A stretch of DNA of 54,982 bases from Candidatus Wolfebacteria bacterium (GTDB lineage Bacteria > Patescibacteriota > Minisyncoccia > UBA6257 > UBA9933), in the NCBI GenBank assembly GCA_024654025.1, contig JANLIR010000004.1, forward strand, positions 1 through 54,982. The letters are read 5' to 3'. Each line of letters begins with the position of its first letter. Within the stretch, counting starts at the first letter, position 1. The notes beneath the pieces are model-generated. The model ran no database searches and was not told the origin of the DNA. It saw only the letters and a program-made list of their open reading frames with translations. Shown here in pieces: positions 2,822 to 51,102 of this stretch. Both the position numbers and the translations under genes were made by a program.

Positions 2822-2896
2822 ACACTAATATTAAACTAATGAACACTAAAAGAATTTTATTAGTGTGTATTGGTTTTATATTGGTGTTTTTTAGCG
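2822..2896 (+). repeat. 75-nt signal-peptide module, copy 1 (paired with 4824-4898)
   Basis: Hand alignment gives 64/75 identical positions with 4824-4898. It spans the promoter-proximal region and signal-peptide codons of 2839-3864. Confidence 0.8.
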
Positions 2897-3864
2897 CGTT
2901 AAAAGCATCTGCCGACTCGGTCAATATTACCGCCTCGGTTAACTCGGTTTGCGGGAACGGAATTTTGGAAAACGGAGAGCAGTGTGACGGGACGGCCTTT
3001 GGTGGCGCATCATGCGTATCGCAGGGCTTTAGTGGAGGCACGCTTTCATGCGCTGCTTCGTGCACTTTTAATACTTCTCAATGCACTTCCGCGCCGCCGC
3101 CCTCTGGCGGAGGAGGTGGCGGAGGCGGCGGTGGATATGTCGCTCCAGTTACCAGCGCTATTTTTAACGGCAGGGCGTATCCCAAAAGCACGGTAACGCT
3201 TCTCAAGGATGCCCAGATTGCCGCCACAACCATCGCTGGCGCGGACGCTAATTTTCAGATAAGTGTTTCCGGTCTTTCTGGCGGTAACTATATCTTCTCG
3301 GTTTATAGCGAAGACAGTAAGGGTAATCGGTCGTCTCTCTTGACTTTTCCGGTGAGCGTAACTTCAGGCGCCACTACAAAAGTGAGTGGTATTTTTATTG
3401 CGCCAACAATTACGGTTGACAAAAGCGAAGTCAAAAGAGGAGATGATATTGCGATTTTTGGCCAGTCAGTTCCAAATAGCGAAATAACTATTTCTGTTAA
3501 TTCTGACGAGGAATTTTTTAATAAAATCAAGGCAGATGCCGGTGGCGTGTATTTGTATAATTTTGACACCTCGCCGCTTGAAATAGCGCAACATTTTACC
3601 AAATCAAAAACCGCGCTAAACGGCGAGATTAGTTCTTTTAGTAAAACCATAAGTTTTGCCGTCGGCACTAAAAATGTCGCCAAAGTCACGCAAGAGTTTT
3701 TGAAAGGAGATTTGAACAACGACGGCCGAGTAAATCTCGTTGATTTTTCTATTGTTGCGTATTGGTATAAACGACCTTCGCCGCCAGCTTCTGCTGATTT
3801 GAATGGCGATGGCAAAACTGACCTTGTTGATTTTAGTATTATGGCGTTTTATTGGACAGGGTAG
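2839..3864 (+). CDS. Secreted protein: signal peptide, Cys-rich repeat, Gly10 linker, Ig-like domains, C-terminal dockerin
   Basis: Signal peptide ends ...ALKASA. CGNGILENGEQCDG...C matches the Myxococcus-type Cys-rich repeat. The C-terminus GDLNNDGRVNLVDFSIVAYWY...ADLNGDGKTDLVDFSIMAFYW is a duplicated Ca-binding dockerin type I signature. Confidence 0.75.
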   Translation: MNTKRILLVCIGFILVFFSALKASADSVNITASVNSVCGNGILENGEQCDGTAFGGASCVSQGFSGGTLSCAASCTFNTSQCTSAPPPSGGGGGGGGGGYVAPVTSAIFNGRAYPKSTVTLLKDAQIAATTIAGADANFQISVSGLSGGNYIFSVYSEDSKGNRSSLLTFPVSVTSGATTKVSGIFIAPTITVDKSEVKRGDDIAIFGQSVPNSEITISVNSDEEFFNKIKADAGGVYLYNFDTSPLEIAQHFTKSKTALNGEISSFSKTISFAVGTKNVAKVTQEFLKGDLNNDGRVNLVDFSIVAYWYKRPSPPASADLNGDGKTDLVDFSIMAFYWTG

Positions 3865-3914: not shown

Positions 3915-4820
3915 ATGACCAAAAGCCAAAAATCAAAAATTGCCATACCGCTGATAATCTTTATGTTATTTTTTGCAATACCCGTTTTTGCGGCGGAAAT
4001 TTATTTTGATACAAAAACCCAGGAGATAAAAGTAAATCAATTGTTTGAAGTCGTCATTTTTATCAATACTGACGAAGAAAGTATAAATGCCGTTGAGGGC
4101 AAAATTGTATTTCCGGAGAAACTTCTTAAATTAAAAGAAATAAGAGACGGCAACTCAATTATTAATTTTTGGATTGAACGGCCCAGGGCCAAAAATGGAG
4201 AAATTCTATTTTCCGGGATTATTCCCGGCGGTTATATGGATAAAAAAGGCCTGATTTTTTCAATAATTTTTCAAGCAATACAAGAAGGCCGGGGTTCAAT
4301 AGAAATTCGCGATATAAAAGCGCTGCTCAATGATGGGAAGGGAACAAAAGCGGACACAACAATTTCTAATTCACAATTTGCAATCTCGGGGCAGGAGCCG
4401 GCATCTCGACCCGCAGTATTTGAAAAAAAGGATATTGATATGCCGGAAACATTTGAACCAACGGTGGCGAGCGATCCGGCAATATTTGACGGCAAATACT
4501 TTTTGGTGTTTGCGACACAGGATAAGGCGTCGGGTATTGATTTTTATGAGGCAAAAGAATCCAGGCAAGGGCTTTTTTCTATATTCAAGAGTTGGATGCC
4601 GGTTGAAAGTCCTTTTGTTCTGAACGATCAGGAGTTACGGAGCTTCATTTTTGTCAAAGCGATTGATAAAGCCGGAAATGAAAGAATTGCCGTGGTTGAG
4701 CCGAGATATCCGATAAAGTGGTATTATGAGGCGTGGTGGATTTGGATTATAATAATATTAGCAATAATTTTTACCCTCATTTTTATTAAAAGGAATTTAT
4801 GGAACAAAATAATCCATTAA
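3915..4820 (+). CDS. Cohesin-domain protein with C-terminal TM anchor
   Basis: A signal peptide is followed by AEIYFDTKTQEIKVNQLFEVVIFINTDEESINAVEGKIVFPEKLLKL, which is cohesin-like in pattern. There is a KAIDKAGN beta-sandwich motif and a C-terminal TM segment WWIWIIIILAIIFTLIFI. Confidence 0.6.
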   Translation: MTKSQKSKIAIPLIIFMLFFAIPVFAAEIYFDTKTQEIKVNQLFEVVIFINTDEESINAVEGKIVFPEKLLKLKEIRDGNSIINFWIERPRAKNGEILFSGIIPGGYMDKKGLIFSIIFQAIQEGRGSIEIRDIKALLNDGKGTKADTTISNSQFAISGQEPASRPAVFEKKDIDMPETFEPTVASDPAIFDGKYFLVFATQDKASGIDFYEAKESRQGLFSIFKSWMPVESPFVLNDQELRSFIFVKAIDKAGNERIAVVEPRYPIKWYYEAWWIWIIIILAIIFTLIFIKRNLWNKIIH

Positions 4821-6574
4821 TTAACACTAATATTAGATTAAATTACACTAAAACAATTTTATTAGTGTTTATTAGTTTTTTATTAGTGTTTTTTGGCGGG
4901 GTAAGCGCGGCTTCGGCGGCGACTTTATATTTTTCTCCTTCTTCGGGATCTTATACTGTCGGTCAAAACTTTTCCGTGTCAGTTTATGTTTCAAGCGCTG
5001 ACCAGGCGATGAATGCCGCTTCCGGCGTGATTTCATTTCCGCAAGACAAGCTTGAGGTAACCTCTTTTTCTAAAAGCAATTCTATCTTTACTCTCTGGGT
5101 GCAAGAACCGGCGTTTTCTAATGACGTTGGCACGGTTAATCTTGAAGGCATTGTGCTTAATCCAGGATTTACCGGCGCGACCGGAAAAATTATTACCGTA
5201 AACTTTAAAGCAAAAGCAGCAGGTAACGCGCTTCTAAATTTTTCTTCCGGTTCAGTATTAGCCAATGACGGCAAAGGAACAAATATTCTTACAAGTTTGG
5301 GAAATGCGCAATTTAACTTGGGCTATGCTGGTCCATCGGTTCCCGAAACCACTACTCCATCAATTACGCTGGGCACGCCGCCTGCTCCGCAAATTTCTTC
5401 TCCCACGCATCCCGATCCTAATAAATGGTATGCCAACAACAATGCAAAATTTATGTGGTCAGTGCCGTCTGACGCTGTTGCCACAGGGCTTTTGTATGAC
5501 AAATATCCCAATAGCCAGCCGAGAGTGGTTTATGAACCGGCAATCTCGGAAAAAGAAATCAGTGACTTGAAAGACGGAGTTTATTATTTTCATGTTCAAT
5601 TCAAGAACAACAAAGGATGGGGCGCGATTTCGCATTTTCGGTTTCAGATTGACACCCAGCCGCCGGAACCCTTTGACATAAAATTTATTGACGGCGAAAA
5701 AAGTAGTAATCCCCAGCCAACCGCAGTATTTGATACCACTGACTCGCTTTCAGGAATTGAATATTACAAAATTAAAATCGGCGAAGGAGATTTCTTTGTT
5801 ATAGCGCCGGAAGTTGTAATAAAAAGTAATCCTTATACTTTACCTCTGCAGATGCCGGGAAAACGCAGTATTTTAGTTCAGGCCTACGATAAAGCCGGCA
5901 ATTATACCGTTAATAGCGCTGAATTTGTTATTAAGCCGATTCTGGTCCCGACAATCACTGATTATACTAATAAGATAACCAAAGGAGACCCTCTGATAAT
6001 ACGAGGTAAGGGCGTTTCAAATTCAACTATAACAATATTTTTAAAATCCGATGAGAACAATATTTTAAGTCAAAGTGTAGAAAGCGATAAAGACGGATTT
6101 TTCAATTTAATCTGGCAAGGTAAAGTTGAAAACGGAGTTTACGCTTTATGGGCAGAAGCCACGGATGAGCGCGGCGCCCACAGCGAAAAATCGACGACCC
6201 ACACTCTCATTGTCAAAAAAGGGCCAATAGAGCAATTTTTCGCAACGCTCCTTCCGTACTTGGCGATTATTATTTTAATATTGGCAATAATTCTTCTGAT
6301 AATTTATCTAATTATGAATTTTTGGCGAAAATACGTGGAATTGCATAAAAGAATCAAAAAAGAATCGCAAGAGCCGGAAGCCGCTATTTCCGAGTATTTC
6401 GGCGTTCTTTTGAAAAATATCCGTTCTTATCTTCGATTGTTGGAAGGAGCGAAAACAAGAAAAGAATTATTAGAGCGTAAAAAAGAAATAATTAACCAGA
6501 TAAAAAACGACTTGGACAGCATAGAGGTTCTTATTCTTAAAGAAATCAAAGACCTTGAAGATAGAGGCAATTAA
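4799..6574 (+). CDS. Cohesin-domain surface protein with Ig/FN3-like repeats, TM anchor and cytoplasmic coiled-coil tail
   Basis: The cohesin-like N-terminus is LYFSPSSGSYTVGQNFSVSVYVSSADQAMNAASGVISFPQDKLEV...ITVNFKAKAAGNALLNF. It also has a YDKAGN motif, TM segment LLPYLAIIILILAIILLIIYLI and a Lys/Glu-rich tail. The ATG is preceded by AAAGGAA and overlaps the upstream gene by 22 nt. Confidence 0.65.
   Translation: MEQNNPLINTNIRLNYTKTILLVFISFLLVFFGGVSAASAATLYFSPSSGSYTVGQNFSVSVYVSSADQAMNAASGVISFPQDKLEVTSFSKSNSIFTLWVQEPAFSNDVGTVNLEGIVLNPGFTGATGKIITVNFKAKAAGNALLNFSSGSVLANDGKGTNILTSLGNAQFNLGYAGPSVPETTTPSITLGTPPAPQISSPTHPDPNKWYANNNAKFMWSVPSDAVATGLLYDKYPNSQPRVVYEPAISEKEISDLKDGVYYFHVQFKNNKGWGAISHFRFQIDTQPPEPFDIKFIDGEKSSNPQPTAVFDTTDSLSGIEYYKIKIGEGDFFVIAPEVVIKSNPYTLPLQMPGKRSILVQAYDKAGNYTVNSAEFVIKPILVPTITDYTNKITKGDPLIIRGKGVSNSTITIFLKSDENNILSQSVESDKDGFFNLIWQGKVENGVYALWAEATDERGAHSEKSTTHTLIVKKGPIEQFFATLLPYLAIIILILAIILLIIYLIMNFWRKYVELHKRIKKESQEPEAAISEYFGVLLKNIRSYLRLLEGAKTRKELLERKKEIINQIKNDLDSIEVLILKEIKDLEDRGN
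4824..4898 (+). repeat. 75-nt signal-peptide module, copy 2
   Basis: See 2822-2896. The position equivalent to the ATG of copy 1 reads AAT here, so this gene starts 13 codons further upstream. Confidence 0.8.
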
Positions 6575-32158: not shown

Positions 32159-32614
32159 TTACCCATTGATTGTATCGTTTAATGTCTGAATGTATTTGCT
32201 TAACCATTCCTCGATTTCTAATAGAAACAAATCTTTATTGTCTGCTCCTTTTGACTCCGCTACTCTTCTGGCTAAATTAACTAAATAGTCTTCAATTTCT
32301 TCTTGCGGACCGCGAAGCCACAAATTATTTATAAACAAAAAAATCAAAAGTGAAGCTGTTGCGGTTCTTTTATTCCCGTTTTTGAACGGATGATTTTTTA
32401 TTAATCCATAGTACAAAATCGCTGCTTTTTTGTGGAATGTTGGATAATAAGGTTGTTTGGGGTTATTAAGCGCCGATTCAAGAAGGGCAATTTCATGGTC
32501 GTCAAATTTTGTCATCGGCTCTACTGACGAATCAAAAAGCGCCACCGCTATCGGGTGGCACATTTTTTCCATTAATTCTCTGTTGATAAAGTTAATATTT
32601 TCAGACTCTGTCAT
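32159..32614 (-). CDS. doc: Doc-type toxin (Fic fold, kinase subfamily)
   Basis: HPFKNGNKRTA matches the Doc variant of the Fic motif (compare P1 Doc HIFNDANKRTA). The preferred start is the ATG at 32614, which overlaps the antitoxin stop by 14 nt; the ORF track uses GTG at 32638. Confidence 0.8.
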   Translation of the reverse strand: MTESENINFINRELMEKMCHPIAVALFDSSVEPMTKFDDHEIALLESALNNPKQPYYPTFHKKAAILYYGLIKNHPFKNGNKRTATASLLIFLFINNLWLRGPQEEIEDYLVNLARRVAESKGADNKDLFLLEIEEWLSKYIQTLNDTING

Positions 32615-32768
32615 ATTCGGCAAGCCGTTCAAAAACACGACGATAATCTTTTATCGCTTTTTTTGCTCCTTCAATCGCTTTTTTTTCAAGCTCGGCTTTA
32701 TTGAGGGGCACTGTTTTGACTTCCTTTTTAGCGCTCTTTTTAAATATTTTTCCTAAAATCTTCCTCAT
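32601..32768 (-). CDS. Phd-like antitoxin partner of Doc (55 aa, absent from the ORF track)
   Basis: Hand translation gives MRKILGKIFKKSAKKEVKTVPLNKAELEKKAIEGAKKAIKDYRRVFERLAEYDRV. TGGTATAAT (32775-32783, minus strand) lies 6 nt upstream of the ATG. The stop overlaps the doc start, which is classic type II TA coupling. Confidence 0.6.
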   Translation of the reverse strand: MRKILGKIFKKSAKKEVKTVPLNKAELEKKAIEGAKKAIKDYRRVFERLAEYDRV

Positions 32769-32839: not shown

Positions 32840-33802
32840 TTATTTTTTATCTTTAATGCTATTCAAGATTTTTTCTACTTTTTTTATGCTTTCTAAGTCG
32901 AGAATGGAAATAGCAATTGCGCGGGAGTCTATTTTTTTAAGAACTGTTAATTTTTTATTAAGCTCTTTTTGTGTTACAAGATCGCTCTTTGTAAGAAAAA
33001 GGCGTTCCGGTTTTTTAAGAAGTTTTTTGTTATACAAGCCCAATTCTTTGCGGATGGTCTTGTAGTCCTTTGAGGGAGCAGAAGATTCCGATGAAATAAA
33101 ATGAAAAAGAATATTTGTCCGCTCAATATGGCGGAGAAATTTAATGCCAAGCCCTTTGCCGCTTGACGACCCTTCTATGAGCCCGGGGATATCCGCGAGG
33201 ATAAGTTCGTAGTACGCGCCTAAGTTTGGCTCAAGCGTGGTAAATGGATAATTTGCCACTTTGCTTTTGGCGTTTGTGAGCTCGTTAAGTAAGCTTGATT
33301 TGCCGACATTTGGAAGTCCCACGAAACCGACATCTGCGATGAATTTAAGTTCAAATCTGAATTTGAAATCTTCTCCCGGCGTGCCTGTTTGCGCGTATTT
33401 CGGCGAGGTGTTACGGGGAGAACGAAAATGAAAATTACCTTTTCCGCCGATTCCGCCTTTTGCAAGGAGAATCCGTTCGCCGATTTTTTCAACGTTAATT
33501 TCACTGCCGTTTGTAAGGTTGTGAGCTACGGTTCCAACCGGCAGTTTCAAAACAAGGTCTTCTCCGTCTTGGCCGTCACGGAACTGTCCGCGGCCGTCCT
33601 GGCCGTTATCCGCGGTAAATTCTTTTTTAAAGCGAAACTGTTGGAACGCGCTCAAATCAGAAACACCTTCTCCATAAACGCTTCCGCCTTTGCCTCCCGA
33701 CCCTCCGGCGGGCCCTAAGCTCATTAAGTTTGTATTAAACGTCGATGCGCCTTTTCCGCCATGGCCAGCGTTTATTTTTATTTCTACATCATCGATGAGC
33801 AT
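32840..33802 (-). CDS. obg: GTPase Obg/CgtA (short form)
   Basis: Gly-rich Obg fold (GGKGASTF, GGSGGKGG), G1 GLPNVGKSS, G2 YPFTTL and G3 DIPGLIEG. Confidence 0.9.
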   Translation of the reverse strand: MLIDDVEIKINAGHGGKGASTFNTNLMSLGPAGGSGGKGGSVYGEGVSDLSAFQQFRFKKEFTADNGQDGRGQFRDGQDGEDLVLKLPVGTVAHNLTNGSEINVEKIGERILLAKGGIGGKGNFHFRSPRNTSPKYAQTGTPGEDFKFRFELKFIADVGFVGLPNVGKSSLLNELTNAKSKVANYPFTTLEPNLGAYYELILADIPGLIEGSSSGKGLGIKFLRHIERTNILFHFISSESSAPSKDYKTIRKELGLYNKKLLKKPERLFLTKSDLVTQKELNKKLTVLKKIDSRAIAISILDLESIKKVEKILNSIKDKK

Positions 33803-33839
33803 TGTTTTTTAATTATATTAAGATTGAAACTTAAACCCC

Positions 33840-33893
33840 TAAAGGATTCTTTGGGTTAATTTATTATAACAGATTGTCCCGCTCCGGTCAGGG
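33840..33893. repeat. Island repeat copy A (right half only)
   Basis: 44/54 identical to 36020-36073 by hand alignment. It carries TGTTATAAT on the minus strand (33863-33871). Confidence 0.8.
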
Positions 33894-33929
33894 AAAACAT
33901 CACTGTTGAAATGTGGACATTTCTAACAA

Positions 33930-34937
33930 TTAGTAATCCTCGTTAGGAAATATGAATTTCCTGGGTGGAGGCTTAATGTGTCGTATCTCAGAATCTATTT
34001 TTTTCAGAGAATCTTTTATTGATTCATTTTTTTCTTCTTCGGTAGATGTGTGTAACACGGTCATTCCAACCTTCTTTTTAATTTGTTCACTTTCGAGTGT
34101 GTATATTATTTCGTTTATTTTATTAAAAACCTCCTCGTATCTTATTAGATAAGGTGGCAGCTCTGCATACTTAAGATGTGTTATGAAAAACCGATGTACG
34201 GCTCGATTCCGAAAATCGTACAACTCATTTAGTTCCCCATATATATTTTTATCAATAATGTTCAAATCTTTTGCCATAGCTATGATATTTCTCTCGCTTA
34301 TATACTTCTTCCCTTTTTGGAAAATCAAATCTTCATTGACGGCCATAGTTTTTTTAATTATTTGCTCTTTAAGAACAATAGCCATTCTTAGTAGACCATC
34401 TATCAATGAGGCATAAAGAACAAGTCCCTCCATTAAACTACCTTCGGCACAAGCCTTTGTAAGCAATATACGTGCTGCTCCAATGGCCCTAAGAATATTG
34501 ACCAATGGATTTTTCTTGTTTTCTTTTTCGAGATCCGACTCCAACACCTTCATTCTTGCAATTCCCCTTATTACTGCCGATAAAAAATTCTCACCCTCTT
34601 TTCTAAGCTTTGAAGAAACACTCAGACTAAAATCTTTAGTTTTATCGTGTCCATAACCTACAGACCATCCACCTTTAAAATCGTAACAAGTTAACAAGCC
34701 ATGTTTAGTTTTGAAGACCCAAGTCCAAGTCGTTTTTTTATCAATAAACATAACACCGTCCGTGTCTAAATTAGGCGGGCCATATACCGTATTTAATAGA
34801 TCAAAAACTTCGTTTGCAGAAATATTAGAATCAAAGGGAGTGCCGCACAGAAAAGCCCCGCCGTATATCTTAATCTTAGGAGAGTATTCGAATCGCGAGA
34901 TGGGGAATTTTTTTCTTAGTTCATCTTTTAGGTCCAT
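33930..34937 (-). CDS. Two-domain protein with C-terminal HEPN-like domain (R-x4-H)
   Basis: The C-terminal helical region ends in LNELYDFRNRAVHRF (RNRAVH = Rx4H). The ~180-aa N-domain is unrecognised. The start was set to the ATG at 34937; the longer ORF-track version reads through repeat copy B. Confidence 0.5.
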   Translation of the reverse strand: MDLKDELRKKFPISRFEYSPKIKIYGGAFLCGTPFDSNISANEVFDLLNTVYGPPNLDTDGVMFIDKKTTWTWVFKTKHGLLTCYDFKGGWSVGYGHDKTKDFSLSVSSKLRKEGENFLSAVIRGIARMKVLESDLEKENKKNPLVNILRAIGAARILLTKACAEGSLMEGLVLYASLIDGLLRMAIVLKEQIIKKTMAVNEDLIFQKGKKYISERNIIAMAKDLNIIDKNIYGELNELYDFRNRAVHRFFITHLKYAELPPYLIRYEEVFNKINEIIYTLESEQIKKKVGMTVLHTSTEEEKNESIKDSLKKIDSEIRHIKPPPRKFIFPNEDY

Positions 34938-35018
34938 CTGTTTTATTCCATGAGAACTATTAGTAAAGCTGGCTATCCACAAACATCCCAGCTCCCCTTG
35001 ATACCGCGCTAACTGCTG

Positions 35019-35095
35019 CTGTGTTCTCCGGTCTGGAACCCACCAGAGCAAGACCGTTAAAGGATTTTTTGGGTCAATTTATTATACCAAATTGA
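35019..35095. repeat. Island repeat copy B (full length)
   Basis: 68/77 identical to 35981-36057. It contains the hairpin TCTGG-n6-CCAGA and TGGTATAAT on the minus strand (35081-35089). Confidence 0.85.
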
Positions 35096-35272
35096 CCCGC
35101 CTGTCTATCCATAGCACTTGGCGAAGGTGGGATGCTGGAGCTTATTTAAGGATTTAATTATATAACAATTTGCGTTTAAGATATATGTTTTTAATAGGAT
35201 TTTATGCTTTGACAGTTATCCACACTCTAATTGACTTCTAATACCGGAGGTTATATATTTAATATATAAACG

Positions 35273-35305
35273 CCCCAGCCAGCCGCAAGGTCCGCTGGGG
35301 TTTTT
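35273..35305 (+). terminator. Orphan terminator-like hairpin CCCCAGC...GCTGGGG plus T5
   Basis: Read directly. There is no ORF upstream on the plus strand. It lies 30 nt upstream of the NYN gene start. Confidence 0.4.
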
Positions 35306-35335
35306 AGTTATCAAAGTATTGTATATAATAATAAA

Positions 35336-35938
35336 ATGACAACTTTTTTACTAATAGACGGAGAAAATTTTAAGGGCAAAATAAGGGATGTTTTCAAAGA
35401 AGTTGGTAAAAACAAACCGATATGGCATGAATATGATTTTAAAGGCCTTCTTGATAAAGTTTTACAAGGAATAGATATAGAAAAATCTATTTTTTATTTT
35501 GCAAAGATTAAAGAAGACCCACAAACAAGGGAAAAGTCAAAACGGCTCATTGAAGAACAACGTTTATTAAAAACGCATTTAGAAAAACAAGGATTTGAAG
35601 TCATATTAACCGGTCGAGTAAGAGGTCATATGGAAAATAACGGCTCATCGGAAAAATCCATTCTTGTTTTCAAAGAAAAAGGCGTTGATGTAAAAATTGC
35701 GGTTGATATGGTTAGTTGGTCTTGCGATAAAAAAAGCGATCAAATTATTTTAGGCAGCTCTGACTCTGATTTACAACCCGCAATAAAAGAAATAAGAAAA
35801 AGAGGAACTAATTGTATTTATTTAGGTTTTGAAACACAACCGAATAAGGGATTAACTTATACCACAAATCGCACGATTTTAATTCGTAATTCCGAAATAA
35901 TGGAATTTGAAAGCAGAATTAATAAGGACACTTCTTAG
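35336..35938 (+). CDS. NYN-domain (LabA/PIN-like) ribonuclease
   Basis: LLIDGENF, GVDVKIAVDMV and ILGSSDSDLQPAIKEIRKRG. TATAAT lies 6 nt upstream of the ATG. Confidence 0.7.
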   Translation: MTTFLLIDGENFKGKIRDVFKEVGKNKPIWHEYDFKGLLDKVLQGIDIEKSIFYFAKIKEDPQTREKSKRLIEEQRLLKTHLEKQGFEVILTGRVRGHMENNGSSEKSILVFKEKGVDVKIAVDMVSWSCDKKSDQIILGSSDSDLQPAIKEIRKRGTNCIYLGFETQPNKGLTYTTNRTILIRNSEIMEFESRINKDTS

Positions 35939-35980
35939 AGCGGGCCAGAGCGCGATTTTACAACAATACTGTGTGCCTCA

Positions 35981-36074
35981 CTGTGTTCTCCGGTCTAGAG
36001 CCCACCAGAGCAAGGCCGTTAAAGGGTTATTTGAGTTAATTTATTATATCAGATTGAAGAGTTTCGGTCAGGGG
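35981..36074. repeat. Island repeat copy C (full length, longest)
   Basis: It matches copy B over the left and centre parts and copy A over the right part. TGATATAAT is on the minus strand at 36043-36051. Confidence 0.85.
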
Positions 36075-36137
36075 TTAAATATTTAAAGTTCAGAACTTAA
36101 ACTCGCTTTATCCGACCAATATTGATAAAATTATTTT

Positions 36138-36989
36138 ATGGCAAGGCACAGGTACAAAGACGATAGGGATTCAATATGGGATATTGCGGCTTCTCTTATT
36201 GGCCTTTATTTTCTTTGGCTTGTATTTCTTTACATTACAGATCGTACCGCGTACTGGAGACAATTTTGGTACTTTGTAGTGTTTCTTGTTGTTGTCATCG
36301 CTGGGTCTTTCGCGTGGAAAGAATTCCGATACCGAAGGAAACAGAAAAAGTTAGATAACCTTATAAACTCTATCAAACAAAACGGCTTAGAAGACGATGT
36401 TAAAAACTTCATTAATCGCTTCGGGATGCATAAAGGGAAGGACGACTGGAAATATTTAGACCATAGCTTCGATTGGGAGCAGCTGAAAATTTTTAGAAAA
36501 GTGTTAAATGAAAAAGGAACGCAACTTTCTCTCGATAAATGGGACGATGTACTTTCCTTGCTTCGCAATTATATTCACGACACAGGAGAGAAAGTTATTC
36601 GCGATAGCATCAGCTTAAACCCGAAAAAGTTTACAGACCTTTCCGGCCCGGAGTTTGAGAATCTTCTTTACCGTTTATTTGAAGCGATGGGATATACCGT
36701 TCAGCCTACAGGTAAGACAGGAGATCAGGGTGGCGATTTAATCGCAAACTTAAACGGGCAAAGACTAGTAATCCAAGCAAAATGTTATAGCGGAACAGTC
36801 GGCAACAAGGCGGTTCAAGAAGCAATAGCTGCAAAAAGGATTTATGACTGTAATAGGATCGTGGTTGCGACTAATTCAAGTTTTACTAAAGAGGCTTTTG
36901 AGTTGGCGAGGGTATGGAATGTGGAGCTTGTCAGTGGCGAGAAGTTAAGTGAATGGTTATTACAATACCTTAAAGAAAGTTGGGGTTAG
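36138..36989 (+). CDS. Membrane-anchored Mrr-like restriction endonuclease domain protein
   Basis: Two N-terminal TM helices and a C-terminal Mrr_cat pattern FENLLYRLFEAMGY...GDQGGDLIA...VIQAKCY...VATNSSFTKEA. TGATAAAAT lies 6 nt upstream of the ATG. Confidence 0.7.
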   Translation: MARHRYKDDRDSIWDIAASLIGLYFLWLVFLYITDRTAYWRQFWYFVVFLVVVIAGSFAWKEFRYRRKQKKLDNLINSIKQNGLEDDVKNFINRFGMHKGKDDWKYLDHSFDWEQLKIFRKVLNEKGTQLSLDKWDDVLSLLRNYIHDTGEKVIRDSISLNPKKFTDLSGPEFENLLYRLFEAMGYTVQPTGKTGDQGGDLIANLNGQRLVIQAKCYSGTVGNKAVQEAIAAKRIYDCNRIVVATNSSFTKEAFELARVWNVELVSGEKLSEWLLQYLKESWG

Positions 36990-37013
36990 GGACCGCATGA
37001 TAAAAATCTAAGT

Positions 37014-37088
37014 GCTGTGTACCTCAGTCTAGAGCCTCCTAGAGTAAGACCGTTAGTAATTTATTTAAGTAATTTTATTTTATCATCT
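37014..37088. repeat. Island repeat copy D (diverged, with a short deletion)
   Basis: CTGTGTACCTCAGTCTAGAGCCTCCTAGAGTAAGACCGTTAG... is colinear with copies B and C. The hairpin reads TCTAG-n6-CTAGA. TGATAAAAT is on the minus strand at 37077-37085. Confidence 0.7.
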
Positions 37089-37109
37089 CAACGTGTTTCG
37101 AGCACAAAT

Positions 37110-37796
37110 TTACTTACCCCTTTCTTTATCTATTTCTGATTGAATCCATGCATCTCCGGCGGCCTCAATTTCTTCCGGGGTCGGTTCAGCGTCTTGCATT
37201 TCTTTTTCTTCAAATTGTCTTCTGCGCTCGTCCAATGTTTCGCCCTCATACATCCAATAATCAGTACCTGCAACTCCATAATCATAGCCAAGAATTTTTT
37301 GTGCTGACGTAGAAAGGCTAGTTTTTTCATCATCAAATTCAATGGCACGATCGTTAATAACCTTTGCCTTTTTACTTTCATCGCGACTAAAAGCCAGCTC
37401 TGCACCAATTGGTATATCTACCAGACTAAATTTAAAAACCGATCTTCTTGCTCGTGCTTGATGTAGTGCTTGCCGATCTTCTTTGTCATCTATAAATTCC
37501 TTTTTTGGGGTTATATTTTCTATTTCAGCTAATTTTAGAGCCGCCACAACTCTCTCCGGACCTATTTGAAAAAACTCTCTTCTTGGATTTATCCGACTAT
37601 CATCAAAAGCATCGTGTAGTTGGTTTTCAACAAATGCCGCATCTTTTACAGTGCAGGCATAAAAACACGTGAAAGGGAGGGGAATGTTTGTTGATGTGCT
37701 CAACTCTCTAATTCTTTGTTCTAAGCTAGTAGAAGTTTTACCGATTTTTACATAACCGGGCATCGCTTCGTTTATGAGAACATATATGATATTCAT
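37110..37796 (-). CDS. T5orf172 / GIY-YIG-like domain protein
   Basis: IYVLINEAMPGYVKIGKT...RIRELS...LHDAF...REFF is typical of the T5orf172 family. The C-terminal half is acidic. Confidence 0.65.
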   Translation of the reverse strand: MNIIYVLINEAMPGYVKIGKTSTSLEQRIRELSTSTNIPLPFTCFYACTVKDAAFVENQLHDAFDDSRINPRREFFQIGPERVVAALKLAEIENITPKKEFIDDKEDRQALHQARARRSVFKFSLVDIPIGAELAFSRDESKKAKVINDRAIEFDDEKTSLSTSAQKILGYDYGVAGTDYWMYEGETLDERRRQFEEKEMQDAEPTPEEIEAAGDAWIQSEIDKERGK

Positions 37797-37919
37797 AATT
37801 TTTGACGTTTCTACTGTCTAATAAAACGAATTAAATAATTTCTATTGAAGACCTACTTCTGCTTTGCTACTTCGAGGCACTTGATTTTGCGAACGCTATC
37901 GCGTGGCAAAATCTAAGAG

Positions 37920-37990
37920 CTGCGGGGCTAGGAATCGGACCTAGATTTAGAGGTTCAAAGCCTCTCGTGCTACCATTACACTACCCCGCA
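37920..37990 (-). tRNA. tRNA-Gln (anticodon UUG)
   Basis: Hand-folded cloverleaf: acceptor UGCGGGG/CCCCGCA, anticodon stem AGAGG/CCUCU, loop CUUUGAA, T arm CUAGG-UCCGAUU-CCUAG. No CCA is encoded. Confidence 0.8.
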
Positions 37991-38055: not shown

Positions 38056-38514
38056 ATGGAAAACAAACAAAAATTGTTTGATTATTTAAAGTCTCAAAAT
38101 TTGATGTTTTTGTCTACTTTTGGCAATGAAATTTCCAGTTGTCCCGTTTATTACGCGATAGACAAGGATTTTAACATTTATTTTATAAGCGAACCCGAAA
38201 GCAAGCATTGCCAAAATATAAAAATAAATAATCAAGTGGCTTGTTCAATCGCGGATTCTCGGCAAACCGTAAAAGATAAAAAGATAGGGGTTCAATTACG
38301 TGGAGAGGCTCAAGAAGTTTCCGGAAGCGATAAATTGGAAGCCGTATTAAATCTTTGGAATTCTACCAACCCGGGGATTGAGTCAATAATCAGTATTAAT
38401 AATTTCAAAAATAAAAGTATAAATTCAAAAGCATATAAAATAGTTCCGGAAGAAATAAAGTTTTTTAACGAAGAGCTTTACGGAGAAGAGGGTTTTAAAA
38501 TGCTTAAATTTTAA
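38056..38514 (+). CDS. Pyridoxamine 5'-phosphate oxidase-like FMN-binding split-barrel protein
   Basis: Size (152 aa) and the pattern LMFLSTFGNE...PVYYAIDKDFNIYFIS...VACSI suggest this family. The call is moderate. Confidence 0.45.
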   Translation: MENKQKLFDYLKSQNLMFLSTFGNEISSCPVYYAIDKDFNIYFISEPESKHCQNIKINNQVACSIADSRQTVKDKKIGVQLRGEAQEVSGSDKLEAVLNLWNSTNPGIESIISINNFKNKSINSKAYKIVPEEIKFFNEELYGEEGFKMLKF

Positions 38515-40284: not shown

Positions 40285-40339
40285 TTGATACTTCGGCTCC
40301 GTTCAGTATCAACCCTGAGTTTTTCGAACGGGTTGACTT
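40285..40339 (+). promoter_or_regulatory. Nested inverted-repeat element, copy 1 (three arms TTGATAC / GTATCAACCC / GGGTTGAC)
   Basis: Nt 40302-40339 are 38/38 identical to 50122-50159. Arm 3 overlaps the -35 of the grpE promoter. Confidence 0.7.
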
Positions 40340-50100: not shown

Positions 50101-50159
50101 GGGTTGATACATTCAGTATGATTCAGTATCAACCCTGAGTTTTTCGAACGGGTTGACTT
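50101..50159 (+). promoter_or_regulatory. Nested inverted-repeat element, copy 2 (arms GGGTTGATAC / GTATCAACCC / GGGTTGAC)
   Basis: It starts 6 nt after the stop of the giant gene. There is a 10-bp perfect inverted repeat with a 15-nt loop containing a tandem ATTCAGTAT. The 38-nt core is identical to 40302-40339. Confidence 0.7.
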
Positions 50160-50331: not shown

Positions 50332-51102
50332 ATGAAACGCAATTTCTGGGTTGTTCTATTTATCGCGTTAGCGGTTTTATTGGTCGCGGATTCGATTTTT
50401 GCGGAATCCGCGAAGCCCGGTCGTCGCTACCTCAAAATCGGCGGGGCGCCGATGAATGAAAATCGGCAGTTGGAGCCCGGCGAGGAATTTATGCCGCCAG
50501 CCTCCAAAGATTTTTGGGCAATTACCAATTACCGGAGTAAGATTACCGGTAAAGTTGGAACTGCCCGGGGTTGGGTTCCGGCTGGCACTGTATTCGCTAC
50601 TGTGGTTACGGATGATCCAACGCTTCGAAAAGCGATATGGATCAAGGACTGTGGAAACGACGTCTTGAATCCGGAAAACAAAGCAATTTATTTTCGGGTT
50701 CAAGCAGACGTTCCGGCTGGTAGGCAGATTGCTGGAAGCGAATCATCAAGTGAGGGTCGCGCGTTTATTCCTACCACGCCGGTTGTTGCAAGAGCCTCCA
50801 CGCAACCAACAACGGAAAAGAAATGTTTCGGCAAAGGCACTTGGATGACTGGCGCTGGCACCCTTCTTACTGGCGTTGGTGTCGGAGTAGGCCACTGGGG
50901 TTATCTCTTGGCTGTACCGGGGTTGGCGCTAACGTATTTTGGAGCCAAGGATGAAGCCAGTGACCCAGCTTGTAAAGCGGTCGCCGCGGTAGTCGGCGGC
51001 ATCGGAGGGTATGCCGCGGGTCATACCTATAAAGTTTACGGCGAGGGAGGAGAACCAAACTCGTCGCTTGGCCCGTCGCCCCCCCCGCCGGGTAACAACT
51101 GA
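50332..51102 (+). CDS. Secreted protein with Gly-rich C-terminal membrane segments
   Basis: A strong SD (GGGAGGG), a signal peptide ending ...SIFAES, and C-terminal GxxxG-rich hydrophobic stretches (TGAGTLLTGVGVGVGHWGYLLAVPGLAL, AVAAVVGGIGGYAAG). Confidence 0.55.
   Translation: MKRNFWVVLFIALAVLLVADSIFAESAKPGRRYLKIGGAPMNENRQLEPGEEFMPPASKDFWAITNYRSKITGKVGTARGWVPAGTVFATVVTDDPTLRKAIWIKDCGNDVLNPENKAIYFRVQADVPAGRQIAGSESSSEGRAFIPTTPVVARASTQPTTEKKCFGKGTWMTGAGTLLTGVGVGVGHWGYLLAVPGLALTYFGAKDEASDPACKAVAAVVGGIGGYAAGHTYKVYGEGGEPNSSLGPSPPPPGNN

Follow-up and report, generated by a model that had tools for sequence, protein, structure and literature searches.

What are four genes of unrelated nuclease families doing side by side between two core genes, and how are their products kept harmless when nothing like a partner gene is seen among them? 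This question is raised by contig JANLIR010000004.1 of Candidatus Wolfebacteria bacterium (Patescibacteriota; assembly GCA_024654025.1), of which positions 1–54,982 on the forward strand were analysed; this whole stretch of 54,982 nucleotides (nt) is called here the window. Between obg and a tRNA-Gln(ttg) gene it encodes protein A with a HEPN-like domain, protein B with an NYN domain, protein C with an Mrr-type nuclease domain and protein D with a T5orf172 domain (Table 1). The initial annotation had located the four open reading frames (ORFs), all of which are present, with no further one of useful size in the interval, and had noticed that the interval holds no methyltransferase, ATPase or antitoxin-sized ORF, which is correct from the ORF list. 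It had proposed a defence or abortive-infection (Abi) island that matches no named system.

We conclude that A, B, C and D are nuclease cassettes of one gene each, independent and self-contained, which do not make up one system, since each family is found elsewhere without the others and in unrelated contexts. The interval between obg and tRNA-Gln is an accessory, variable hotspot which has collected these cassettes. Innate defence, directed at phages or other DNA that enters the cell, is their most likely role in view of the sequences and their comparison, and we consider it probable.

The interval between tRNA-Gln and obg

The obg gene was traced by tblastn in 553 relatives, and 80 loci, which come from species-representative Patescibacteria genomes and have 57–85% Obg identity, were kept for comparison. 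An exact match to the Obg protein, sought in order to find strains of the same species, was not on record. The gene order dnaX, tRNA-Gln(ttg), obg recurs in several related Patescibacteria. The gap between tRNA-Gln and obg spans 70 bp in locus L016, 0.84 kb in L003 and about 1–1.6 kb in L028, L029, L032 and L035, and it reaches 3.6 kb in L056, 4.75 kb in L014, 4.8 kb in L023, 6.7 kb in L020 and 8.6 kb in L006. This high variability is what defines the interval as a hotspot, and it supports the earlier idea of an island.

The gene content varies as well, and the four genes show no fixed synteny. Homologues of A, C and D are encoded in none of the 80 obg loci (up to 10 kb on each side of obg where the contig allows), and distant NYN proteins are encoded in two. 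Restriction-modification (RM) genes occupy the interval in two relatives: L006 encodes a type I specificity subunit together with a LexA-like protein and an N6 methyltransferase that carries an HSDR_N domain, and L025 encodes a HaeII endonuclease, a C5 methyltransferase and Vsr. In the closest relative, L001 (85% Obg identity), a different small ORF lies directly upstream of obg; it looks PD-ExK-like by eye and has no PADLOC match. In L166, a B homologue resides in the same dnaX/tRNA-Gln hotspot beside a serine recombinase. The proposal of an accessory immunity-type island is thus supported by the variable interval, by the absence of A, C and D from the 80 relatives, and by the defence-type neighbours which these families have elsewhere.

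The tRNA gene, which had been taken for an island border of the classical kind, does not act as one here. The 22-mer at the 3' end of tRNA-Gln has no second copy in the window, even when three mismatches are allowed, and neither the interval nor the adjoining genes that were profiled encode an integrase or recombinase; therefore, this is not a classical tRNA–integrase island. A foreign origin could not be read from base composition either, since the GC content of the island (0.32–0.42) is the same as that of the flanks.

Four nuclease families and their company elsewhere

The independence of the cassettes follows from their distribution. For B, 315 relatives were confirmed in metagenome contigs, which come from Hainich and JGI sets, and 80 of them (67–81% identical) were kept. 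Their neighbourhoods are unconserved, no neighbour family occurring in more than four of the 80 loci, and A, C and D have no homologues in any of these loci; in the A, C and D loci, these families likewise do not co-occur with each other. The unity of the four genes implied at first is therefore given up. The catalytic residues, for their part, proved to be intact, being invariant in the family alignments of all four proteins.

The assignment of A to the HEPN group stands on its motif and fold and not on profile scores. Against the HepT-like profile PF01934, A scores 20.7 bits, below the Pfam cut-off of 23.5, and against the NCBIfam HepT model NF047751 it scores 19.9 bits with a cut-off of 60. 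However, its RNRAVH motif (R243-N-x3-H248) is invariant in all 13 homologues found by a word index, and R[NHD]xxxH is present in 156 of the 159 hits of a profile search with the A family. The AlphaFold2 model of A (predicted local distance difference test, pLDDT, 80) has its best Foldseek matches in the PDB among HEPN toxins, namely the HepT/MntA complexes, SO_3166, AF_0298 and Csm6, with a probability of up to 1.0, a TM-score to the target of up to 0.67 and weak E-values (0.04–0.3). These matches support an all-alpha HEPN fold of the C-terminal part. The domain in front of it, previously put at about 180 amino acids (aa), comprises about 145 instead. Modelled alone, residues 1–145 give a good structure (pLDDT 85.6, predicted TM-score 0.82) which finds no credible fold match in the PDB (best probability 0.16), and its placement by fold was abandoned.

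The A family is rare (12–13 word-index homologues and 318 profile cluster representatives among 1.84 billion). Its members of about 330 aa share the N-terminal domain, and others consist of the HEPN domain only (about 180–200 aa) or have a Cys-rich domain at the C-terminus. A and its homologues are matched by none of the PADLOC models, HEC-08 included. Five of the six sampled contexts of A homologues lie beside or inside RM, DISARM-like or other defence systems. Two are loci with a DrmD-like SNF2 protein (DrmD model, 2e-182 and 6e-210) and a methyltransferase; a serine recombinase accompanies one of these, and UvrD, SNase and NYN genes accompany the other. A third belongs to a type I RM system, and one more A homologue is located between an OLD-like AAA_15/TOPRIM gene and HsdS. 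The sixth context is a TraG/TrwB-like region.

Among the known HEPN toxins, A shares the Rx4H motif and the all-helical fold with HepT, SO_3166 and AF_0298. It differs from the type VII HepT–MntA pair in having no adjoining MNT nucleotidyltransferase gene, its HepT scores also being under the cut-offs. The short A-family members recall the HEC-08 group (HEPN plus zinc ribbon) in having a Cys-rich domain at their C-terminus, and they lie within type I RM systems. Abi-type HEPN proteins with sensor domains are normally latent. We suggest that A may be a HEPN RNase of the abortive-infection style, in which the unplaced N-terminal domain would serve as a sensor or an auto-inhibitor. If so, A would found a new sensor–HEPN defence family travelling with RM and DISARM-like systems, and would widen the HEPN repertoire by a putative, as yet unplaced sensor domain.

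The NYN/LabA call for B is confirmed by the match to PF01936 (2.2e-15; 57.9 bits with a cut-off of 24.2), the domain starting at residue 4, and by the residues D8, D118, D124 and D145, which are invariant in 57 sequences. In PADLOC, B matches a LabA-like NYN model and, in part, HEC-09 (2.5e-11; profile positions 29–147 of 203). The HEC-09 proteins are NYN/MARF1-like and embedded in Hma. B shares with them the NYN domain and its conserved aspartates, but does not have their N-terminal helix-turn-helix-like extra domain, and no Hma genes occur in the window.

The Mrr_cat core of C, which follows two TM helices seen in the sequence, is likewise well founded (PF04471, 3.5e-27; 95.2 bits with a cut-off of 21), with D196, D200, Q213 and K215 of the D...QxK signature invariant in 28 sequences. 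In PADLOC, the nuclease domain is matched by the ZorD C-terminus, PDC-S02 and models of Mrr-type/type IV enzymes, with which C shares this core. Canonical Mrr carries an N-terminal winged-helix DNA-binding domain. In C, no such Mrr_N domain was detected, and the N-terminal part consists of two hydrophobic helices and a conserved helical linker with no further Pfam domain. A strongly basic stretch, KEFRYRRKQKK, follows the second TM helix, from which we infer that the nuclease faces the cytoplasm while anchored in the membrane. In Mrr-type enzymes it is the substrate that sets the limit to activity. C could thus be a membrane-tethered Mrr-type DNase, probably restricted to modified or incoming DNA at the membrane. 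Its homologues number 276 at E ≤ 1e-5, and among the best 120 most are full-length (about 284 aa); several are named Patescibacteria by their source. Their contexts vary: one gene immediately follows the Mod and Res genes of a type III RM system, and two are close to serine recombinases.

The T5orf172/GIY-YIG-like N-terminus of D is confirmed by PF10544 (6.1e-16) and by a match to MUG113, both above the curated cut-offs. Y5, R28 and E74 are invariant, and Y15 is kept in at least 90% of the family sequences. Over its full length D corresponds to the PADLOC family PDC-S57 (PDLC05041; 6.3e-71, residues 2–198 against profile positions 6–209 of 212), a single-gene T5orf172 protein. The PDC guilt-by-embedding set comprises 145 untested candidates that were recovered from within BREX, DISARM or type I RM systems (bioRxiv 10.1101/2024.01.29.577857). 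In the window, by contrast, D adjoins tRNA-Gln and is not embedded in RM, BREX or DISARM. At E ≤ 1e-10, D has 1698 homologues, of which the best 120 are 67–86% identical. They are accompanied by Abi_alpha, AAA_15/21 ATPase and methyltransferase genes or by a small GIY-YIG gene, tRNA-Gln and a serine recombinase. D would then be a T5orf172/GIY-YIG-like nuclease of the candidate family PDC-S57, with its C-terminal domain supplying specificity. The claim that nothing in the interval belongs to a named system holds only for A, which matches no PADLOC model; D matches PDC-S57 throughout, B matches HEC-09 in part and C matches Mrr-type models.

The flanks of tRNA-Gln themselves deserve mention. Genes for GIY-YIG proteins of about 80 aa and D-type T5orf172 genes repeatedly adjoin it, in L084/L085 (7620–8687), where the D homologue is 60 nt downstream of the tRNA gene, in L014 (5181–5577) and in L025 (1543–1867), which suggests a preferred site for GIY-YIG-type genes. 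A 335-aa protein encoded next to the D homologue of L084 was considered as a relative of A and showed no similarity to it.

The hairpin unit of B and the junction repeats

Upstream of B lies a unit composed of a predicted promoter and a hairpin with a U-tract (35231–35305), and after it comes a second predicted promoter (P1, hairpin RNA and P2 in Table 1). Nucleotide similarity among B loci reaches about 105 nt 5' of the ATG. The layout was established by inspection of 67 non-redundant upstream regions, and promoter elements were counted over 65 B loci. In 53 of the latter, P1 has the −35 element TTGAC[T/A/C] (57 have at least five of the six positions of TTGACA), with a spacer of 16–18 nt and a TAnnnT −10 element. 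The hairpin motif, with the family consensus ACACG-CCCCAGC-YA-GCC-GMAA-GGU-CC-GCUGGGG-UUUU, stands at a fixed 8 nt from the promoter in 47/65 loci, and an extended −10 of the form TGnTAnnnT is found 6–12 nt before the ATG of B, again in 47/65. The position of this P2 element so near the ATG implies a leaderless B mRNA.

With a covariance model, 79 of the 80 B loci show exactly one hairpin immediately ahead of B and on its strand, the remaining locus being cut by the contig end; L136 has an extra weak copy downstream of B. On 1.35 Mb of control loci together with the window, the sole significant match was the window copy (78 bits), followed by a hit of 18.9 bits (E 0.63). Across 63 distinct sequences the ten base pairs of the hairpin show 100% standard pairing, which falls to 20–55% when the partner columns are shifted. 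At three of the ten pairs both sides have changed, from A-U to G-C five times, from C-G to U-A twice and from G-C to C-G once. Some of the pairs are G-U, which can form only when the B-sense strand is read, and therefore the constraint acts on RNA. The mean identity between loci is 91% in the hairpin unit, 68% in the B ORF and 50% in the promoter spacer. We regard as established the strict linkage of the hairpin to B, its conservation in sequence and structure, and the promoter geometry.

Since the unit is present in all 79 loci that have upstream sequence, B has a partner after all, and the junction repeats, which the initial annotation had named as the only candidate regulators in the island, lose this position to an obligately linked promoter-plus-hairpin unit. 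The hairpin may well be transcribed from the predicted promoter as an RNA of about 40 nt which would control or neutralise the B RNase. This RNA would bind or regulate B like a type III antitoxin, or else the strong promoter and the terminator would gate the leaderless promoter of B. The hairpin matches no Rfam family, permissive thresholds included, it has no match in 2.9 million viral contigs, and our literature search turned up no publication that connects NYN proteins with an RNA antitoxin; the retrieved passages of bioRxiv 10.1101/2024.01.29.577857 do not mention an associated RNA for HEC-09. Action through base-pairing with the B mRNA was rejected, because duplex energies equal those of shuffled controls (mean z = −0.05) and no consistent site was seen.

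The type III toxin–antitoxin systems (ToxIN, CptIN and TenpIN) are the closest known parallel. They share with the B locus the order of promoter, short structured RNA, intrinsic terminator and same-strand RNase gene; the B-linked RNA is moreover better conserved than the protein, and the lack of base-pairing with the B mRNA fits a protein-binding RNA as in these systems. The differences are that the hairpin is present in a single copy per locus and not in a tandem array, that the toxin candidate is a single NYN domain outside the ToxN/AbiQ/CptN/TenpN families, and that B carries its own predicted leaderless promoter beyond the terminator. We can only tentatively propose that B and the hairpin form a new type III-like toxin–antitoxin or abortive-infection module that is widespread in Patescibacteria, a fuller claim and a less likely one than that of a regulatory RNA as such. 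A cis-acting terminator or promoter-occlusion device is an explanation of the hairpin unit that we also hold to be less likely than a regulatory RNA, and other explanations are less likely still. As a possible new RNA partner of RNases, the NYN-linked hairpin is a clean candidate, and such a partner, if true, would account for why a HEC-09-type NYN gene seems to be an orphan nuclease.

In 12 of the 67 non-redundant B loci, a DnaA-box consensus TT[AT]TCCACA in either orientation is situated about 10–25 nt 5' of the P1 −35 element (the window, at 35216–35224, and L094, L096, L111, L119, L123, L140, L155–L158 and L161). This is far above the chance for a 9-mer and hints at DnaA control of the hairpin promoter. 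Another observation concerns the C family: in L088 and L090 (both at 5905–6000), two C homologues share an upstream element of about 95 nt, which includes a hairpin, CTTGCCC...GGGCAAG, and, 7 nt ahead of the ATG, a TGTAGAAT box. It resembles the hairpin-plus-leaderless-promoter layout of B, and the C gene of the window does not have it.

The junction repeats are of another nature. A direct repeat of about 95 nt occupies three of the four internal junctions of the island, a half copy stands beside obg, and within the window the repeat is confined to the island. On the minus strand the copies present an extended −10 promoter and then a leader ending in GACCGGAGAACACAGC; the half copy is probably the promoter of obg. 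The exact degenerate pattern of the repeat, found three times in the window, is missing from the 80 relatives and from both the metagenome and the viral contigs. A profile search revealed weak homologues in L014, L010 (two copies), L004 and L025 only, always upstream of obg, in the orientation of obg and often directly before an ORF; beyond these, the core motif was found nowhere else in 1.83 Mb. This distribution is why a widespread mobile element was dismissed. ARAGORN and Rfam gave no match for the repeat, and its folding is weak and inconsistent (z = −2.6, −0.7 and −1.0), so that a tRNA fragment, a structured RNA and attC were likewise set aside; a by-eye comparison with dif sites was unconvincing.

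We read the repeats, on the strength of their sequence and placement, as a putative promoter-plus-leader element peculiar to the hotspot, which would gain copies as more cassettes come in. They would probably drive obg and A, may give rise to RNA antisense to the B and C 3' ends, and may offer homology for cassette exchange. An integron array differs from this arrangement: the genes of the interval run in the order −, +, +, −, B and probably C have promoters of their own, the repeats show no consistent fold, and no intI is encoded in the interval or in the profiled neighbours.

Table 1. Features of the obg–tRNA-Gln interval and its borders (positions in the window)
Feature	Position	Strand	Description
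obg	32840–33802	−	left core-gene border of the hotspot; GTP1_OBG 3.7e-39, MMR_HSR1 8.1e-25
Partial repeat, promoter half	33836–33893	−	family D6; CTGACC-17-TATAAT preceded by TG, 33891->33863; nhmmer 4.6e-07
A	33930–34937	−	335 aa; N-terminal alpha/beta domain and HEPN-like RNase domain
Repeat copy 1, full	35010–35115	−	extended −10 (TGGTATAAT), leader ending GACCGGAGAACACAGC; upstream of A; nhmmer 5.1e-26
P1 promoter	35231–35259	+	near-consensus TTGACT-N17-TATATT, predicted to drive the hairpin unit
Hairpin RNA and U-tract, about 40 nt	35266–35305	+	stems 35273–35279/35294–35300 and 35282–35284/35289–35291; GCAA loop
P2	35320–35329	+	extended −10 (TGTATATAAT), ends 6 nt before the B ATG; read from sequence
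B	35336–35938	+	200 aa; single-domain NYN/LabA-type RNase
Repeat copy 2, full	35972–36077	−	CTGACC-17-TATAAT preceded by TG, antisense into the B 3' end; nhmmer 5.1e-27
C	36138–36989	+	283 aa; two TM helices, helical linker, Mrr_cat PD-(D/E)xK nuclease
Repeat copy 3, full	37006–37105	−	degenerate promoter half, antisense to the C 3' end; nhmmer 1.1e-22
D	37110–37796	−	228 aa; T5orf172 (GIY-YIG-like) nuclease and conserved C-terminal domain
tRNA-Gln(ttg)	37919–37990	−	right hotspot border; ARAGORN, Rfam 66.2 bits

Possible roles of the cassettes and the surroundings of the hotspot

If the cassettes serve innate defence, as we think probable, each family would circulate among Patescibacteria and land in many contexts, typically beside RM or other defence genes, and each enzyme would probably be held in check by a control of its own. 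How four potential nucleases are tolerated with no antitoxin-sized ORF nearby had seemed unexplained, yet for single-protein effectors this is no paradox. Phage carriage of the hairpin or of A–D, for example as decoys, was considered and rejected, since they are nearly absent from the 2.9 million viral contigs (no match for A and B, one for D and two distant ones for C).

Several points weigh against this interpretation of the cassettes and of the hairpin. The hotspots of relatives also hold seemingly ordinary genes, such as a GNAT gene recognised by Pfam and others whose translations look by eye like an ABC-F ATPase, a cation transporter, exonuclease III or 3-methyladenine DNA glycosylase, and position alone is therefore no proof of defence. 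B and D are conserved as strongly as Obg itself (67–86%), which would fit a housekeeping or a selfish role too. The compensatory signal of the hairpin is modest (three of ten pairs, eight cells), because its sequence hardly varies; the hairpin could be a mere insulating terminator, and transcription from the hairpin and repeat promoters is a prediction. In addition, bioRxiv 10.1101/2024.01.29.577857 presents the PDC families explicitly as candidates only, untested, and reports that the NYN representative of HEC-09 protected against none of the phages tried.

The same conservation of B and D, combined with their occurrence in many unrelated contexts, would suit selfish or addiction elements, with D as a free-standing homing-type endonuclease, B and its RNA as a toxin–antitoxin pair and A as a lone toxin. 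Their persistence would then be due to spreading and to resistance against loss, and not to any effect on phages. This is rather unlikely in our opinion, though several facts speak for it: two of the four distinct contexts of D have the gene immediately 3' of tRNA-Gln, in L014, L025 and L084 tRNA-Gln has small GIY-YIG genes beside it, a Doc toxin is encoded just past obg, HEC-09 gave no defence in the work just cited, and T5orf172 homing endonucleases are documented in phages (PMC10448857). However, the contexts of the families are mainly RM, DISARM-like, Abi and OLD-type and not the boundaries of introns, inteins or phage modules, and viral contigs are almost free of them. Selfish and defensive roles are in fact compatible and not mutually exclusive.

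Less probable still is a role in the ordinary nucleic-acid metabolism of a reduced, nucleotide-scavenging episymbiont, where C would process acquired DNA, B would process RNA with the hairpin as a substrate or regulator, and D or A would act in repair or turnover. As far as is known, Patescibacteria lack nucleotide synthesis, B, C and D are widespread, strongly conserved and conserved in length among them, and exonuclease III and the glycosylase are among the by-eye readings in relatives' hotspots. These facts have to be set against the lack of synteny of any of the four with core genes, the absence of A, C and D around obg in 80/80 relatives, the predicted orientation of the C nuclease towards the cytoplasm, and neighbours that are defence and mobility genes. 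One cooperating multi-gene system, in which the repeats would be shared regulators or integron-like recombination sites, appears very improbable. The tight packing of the genes, the repeat at three of four internal junctions with its partial copy by obg, and an A homologue placed two genes from an NYN gene in L082 could be taken in its favour, but that NYN protein is only 22% identical to B and its gene has no hairpin, so a functional link between A and NYN proteins was discarded. Besides the missing linkage among the families, the orientations are mixed, no integrase is encoded in the interval or the profiled neighbours, and the repeat was not found with these genes elsewhere, with no matches in the metagenome and viral scans.

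The defensive reading, which we prefer, has consequences for the whole group. Patescibacteria, or candidate phyla radiation (CPR) bacteria, have tiny genomes and few known CRISPR systems, and their resistance to phages is therefore poorly understood. The tRNA-Gln–obg hotspot, which is filled by RM or by stand-alone nucleases depending on the lineage, offers a concrete site to mine for CPR immunity. Because NYN, TM-Mrr and T5orf172/PDC-S57 proteins are abundant in CPR metagenomes, a result obtained for one member would transfer widely.

The core flanks reported for the island, obg, tRNA-Gln and dnaX, are all supported, by profiles, by ARAGORN and Rfam, and by tblastn matches of dnaX at 42–70% identity in relatives, respectively. 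A Phd/Doc pair had been described beyond obg; the Doc/Fic toxin is real (32159–32768; TIGR01550, 5.8e-15), but the 55-aa ORF that lies upstream of it and overlaps it has no Phd/YefM match in profile searches. The longest ORF of A extends to 35051 and homologues begin at the ATG at 34937; apart from this spurious N-terminal extension, the obg–A and A–B gaps contain no ORF of at least 40 aa. Between dnaX and tRNA-Gln, a PNPOx-like gene occurs at 38056–38514, which is a lineage-specific insertion beside the hotspot because the dnaX–tRNA distance is 26–72 nt in L006 and L023. On the other side, the genes 3' of obg differ in the closest relative L001, and thus that side of obg varies too.

Two further repeats were found in the window. 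An exact 38-nt repeat, TTCAGTATCAACCCTGAGTTTTTCGAACGGGTTGACTT, with the inverted repeat TCAACCC...GGGTTGA, is present at 40302–40339 and 50122–50159. One copy is 30 nt upstream of grpE–dnaK, and the other is upstream of a 256-aa ORF (50332–51102) with an N-terminal hydrophobic stretch that is signal-peptide-like; the repeat may be a shared operator, and its sequence differs from the classical CIRCE. The second repeat, of 91 nt and 84% identity (family D7; 2812–2902 and 4814–4904), is rich in ACACTAAT/TTAGTGT words and covers the starts of the ORFs 2839–3864 and 4799–6574.

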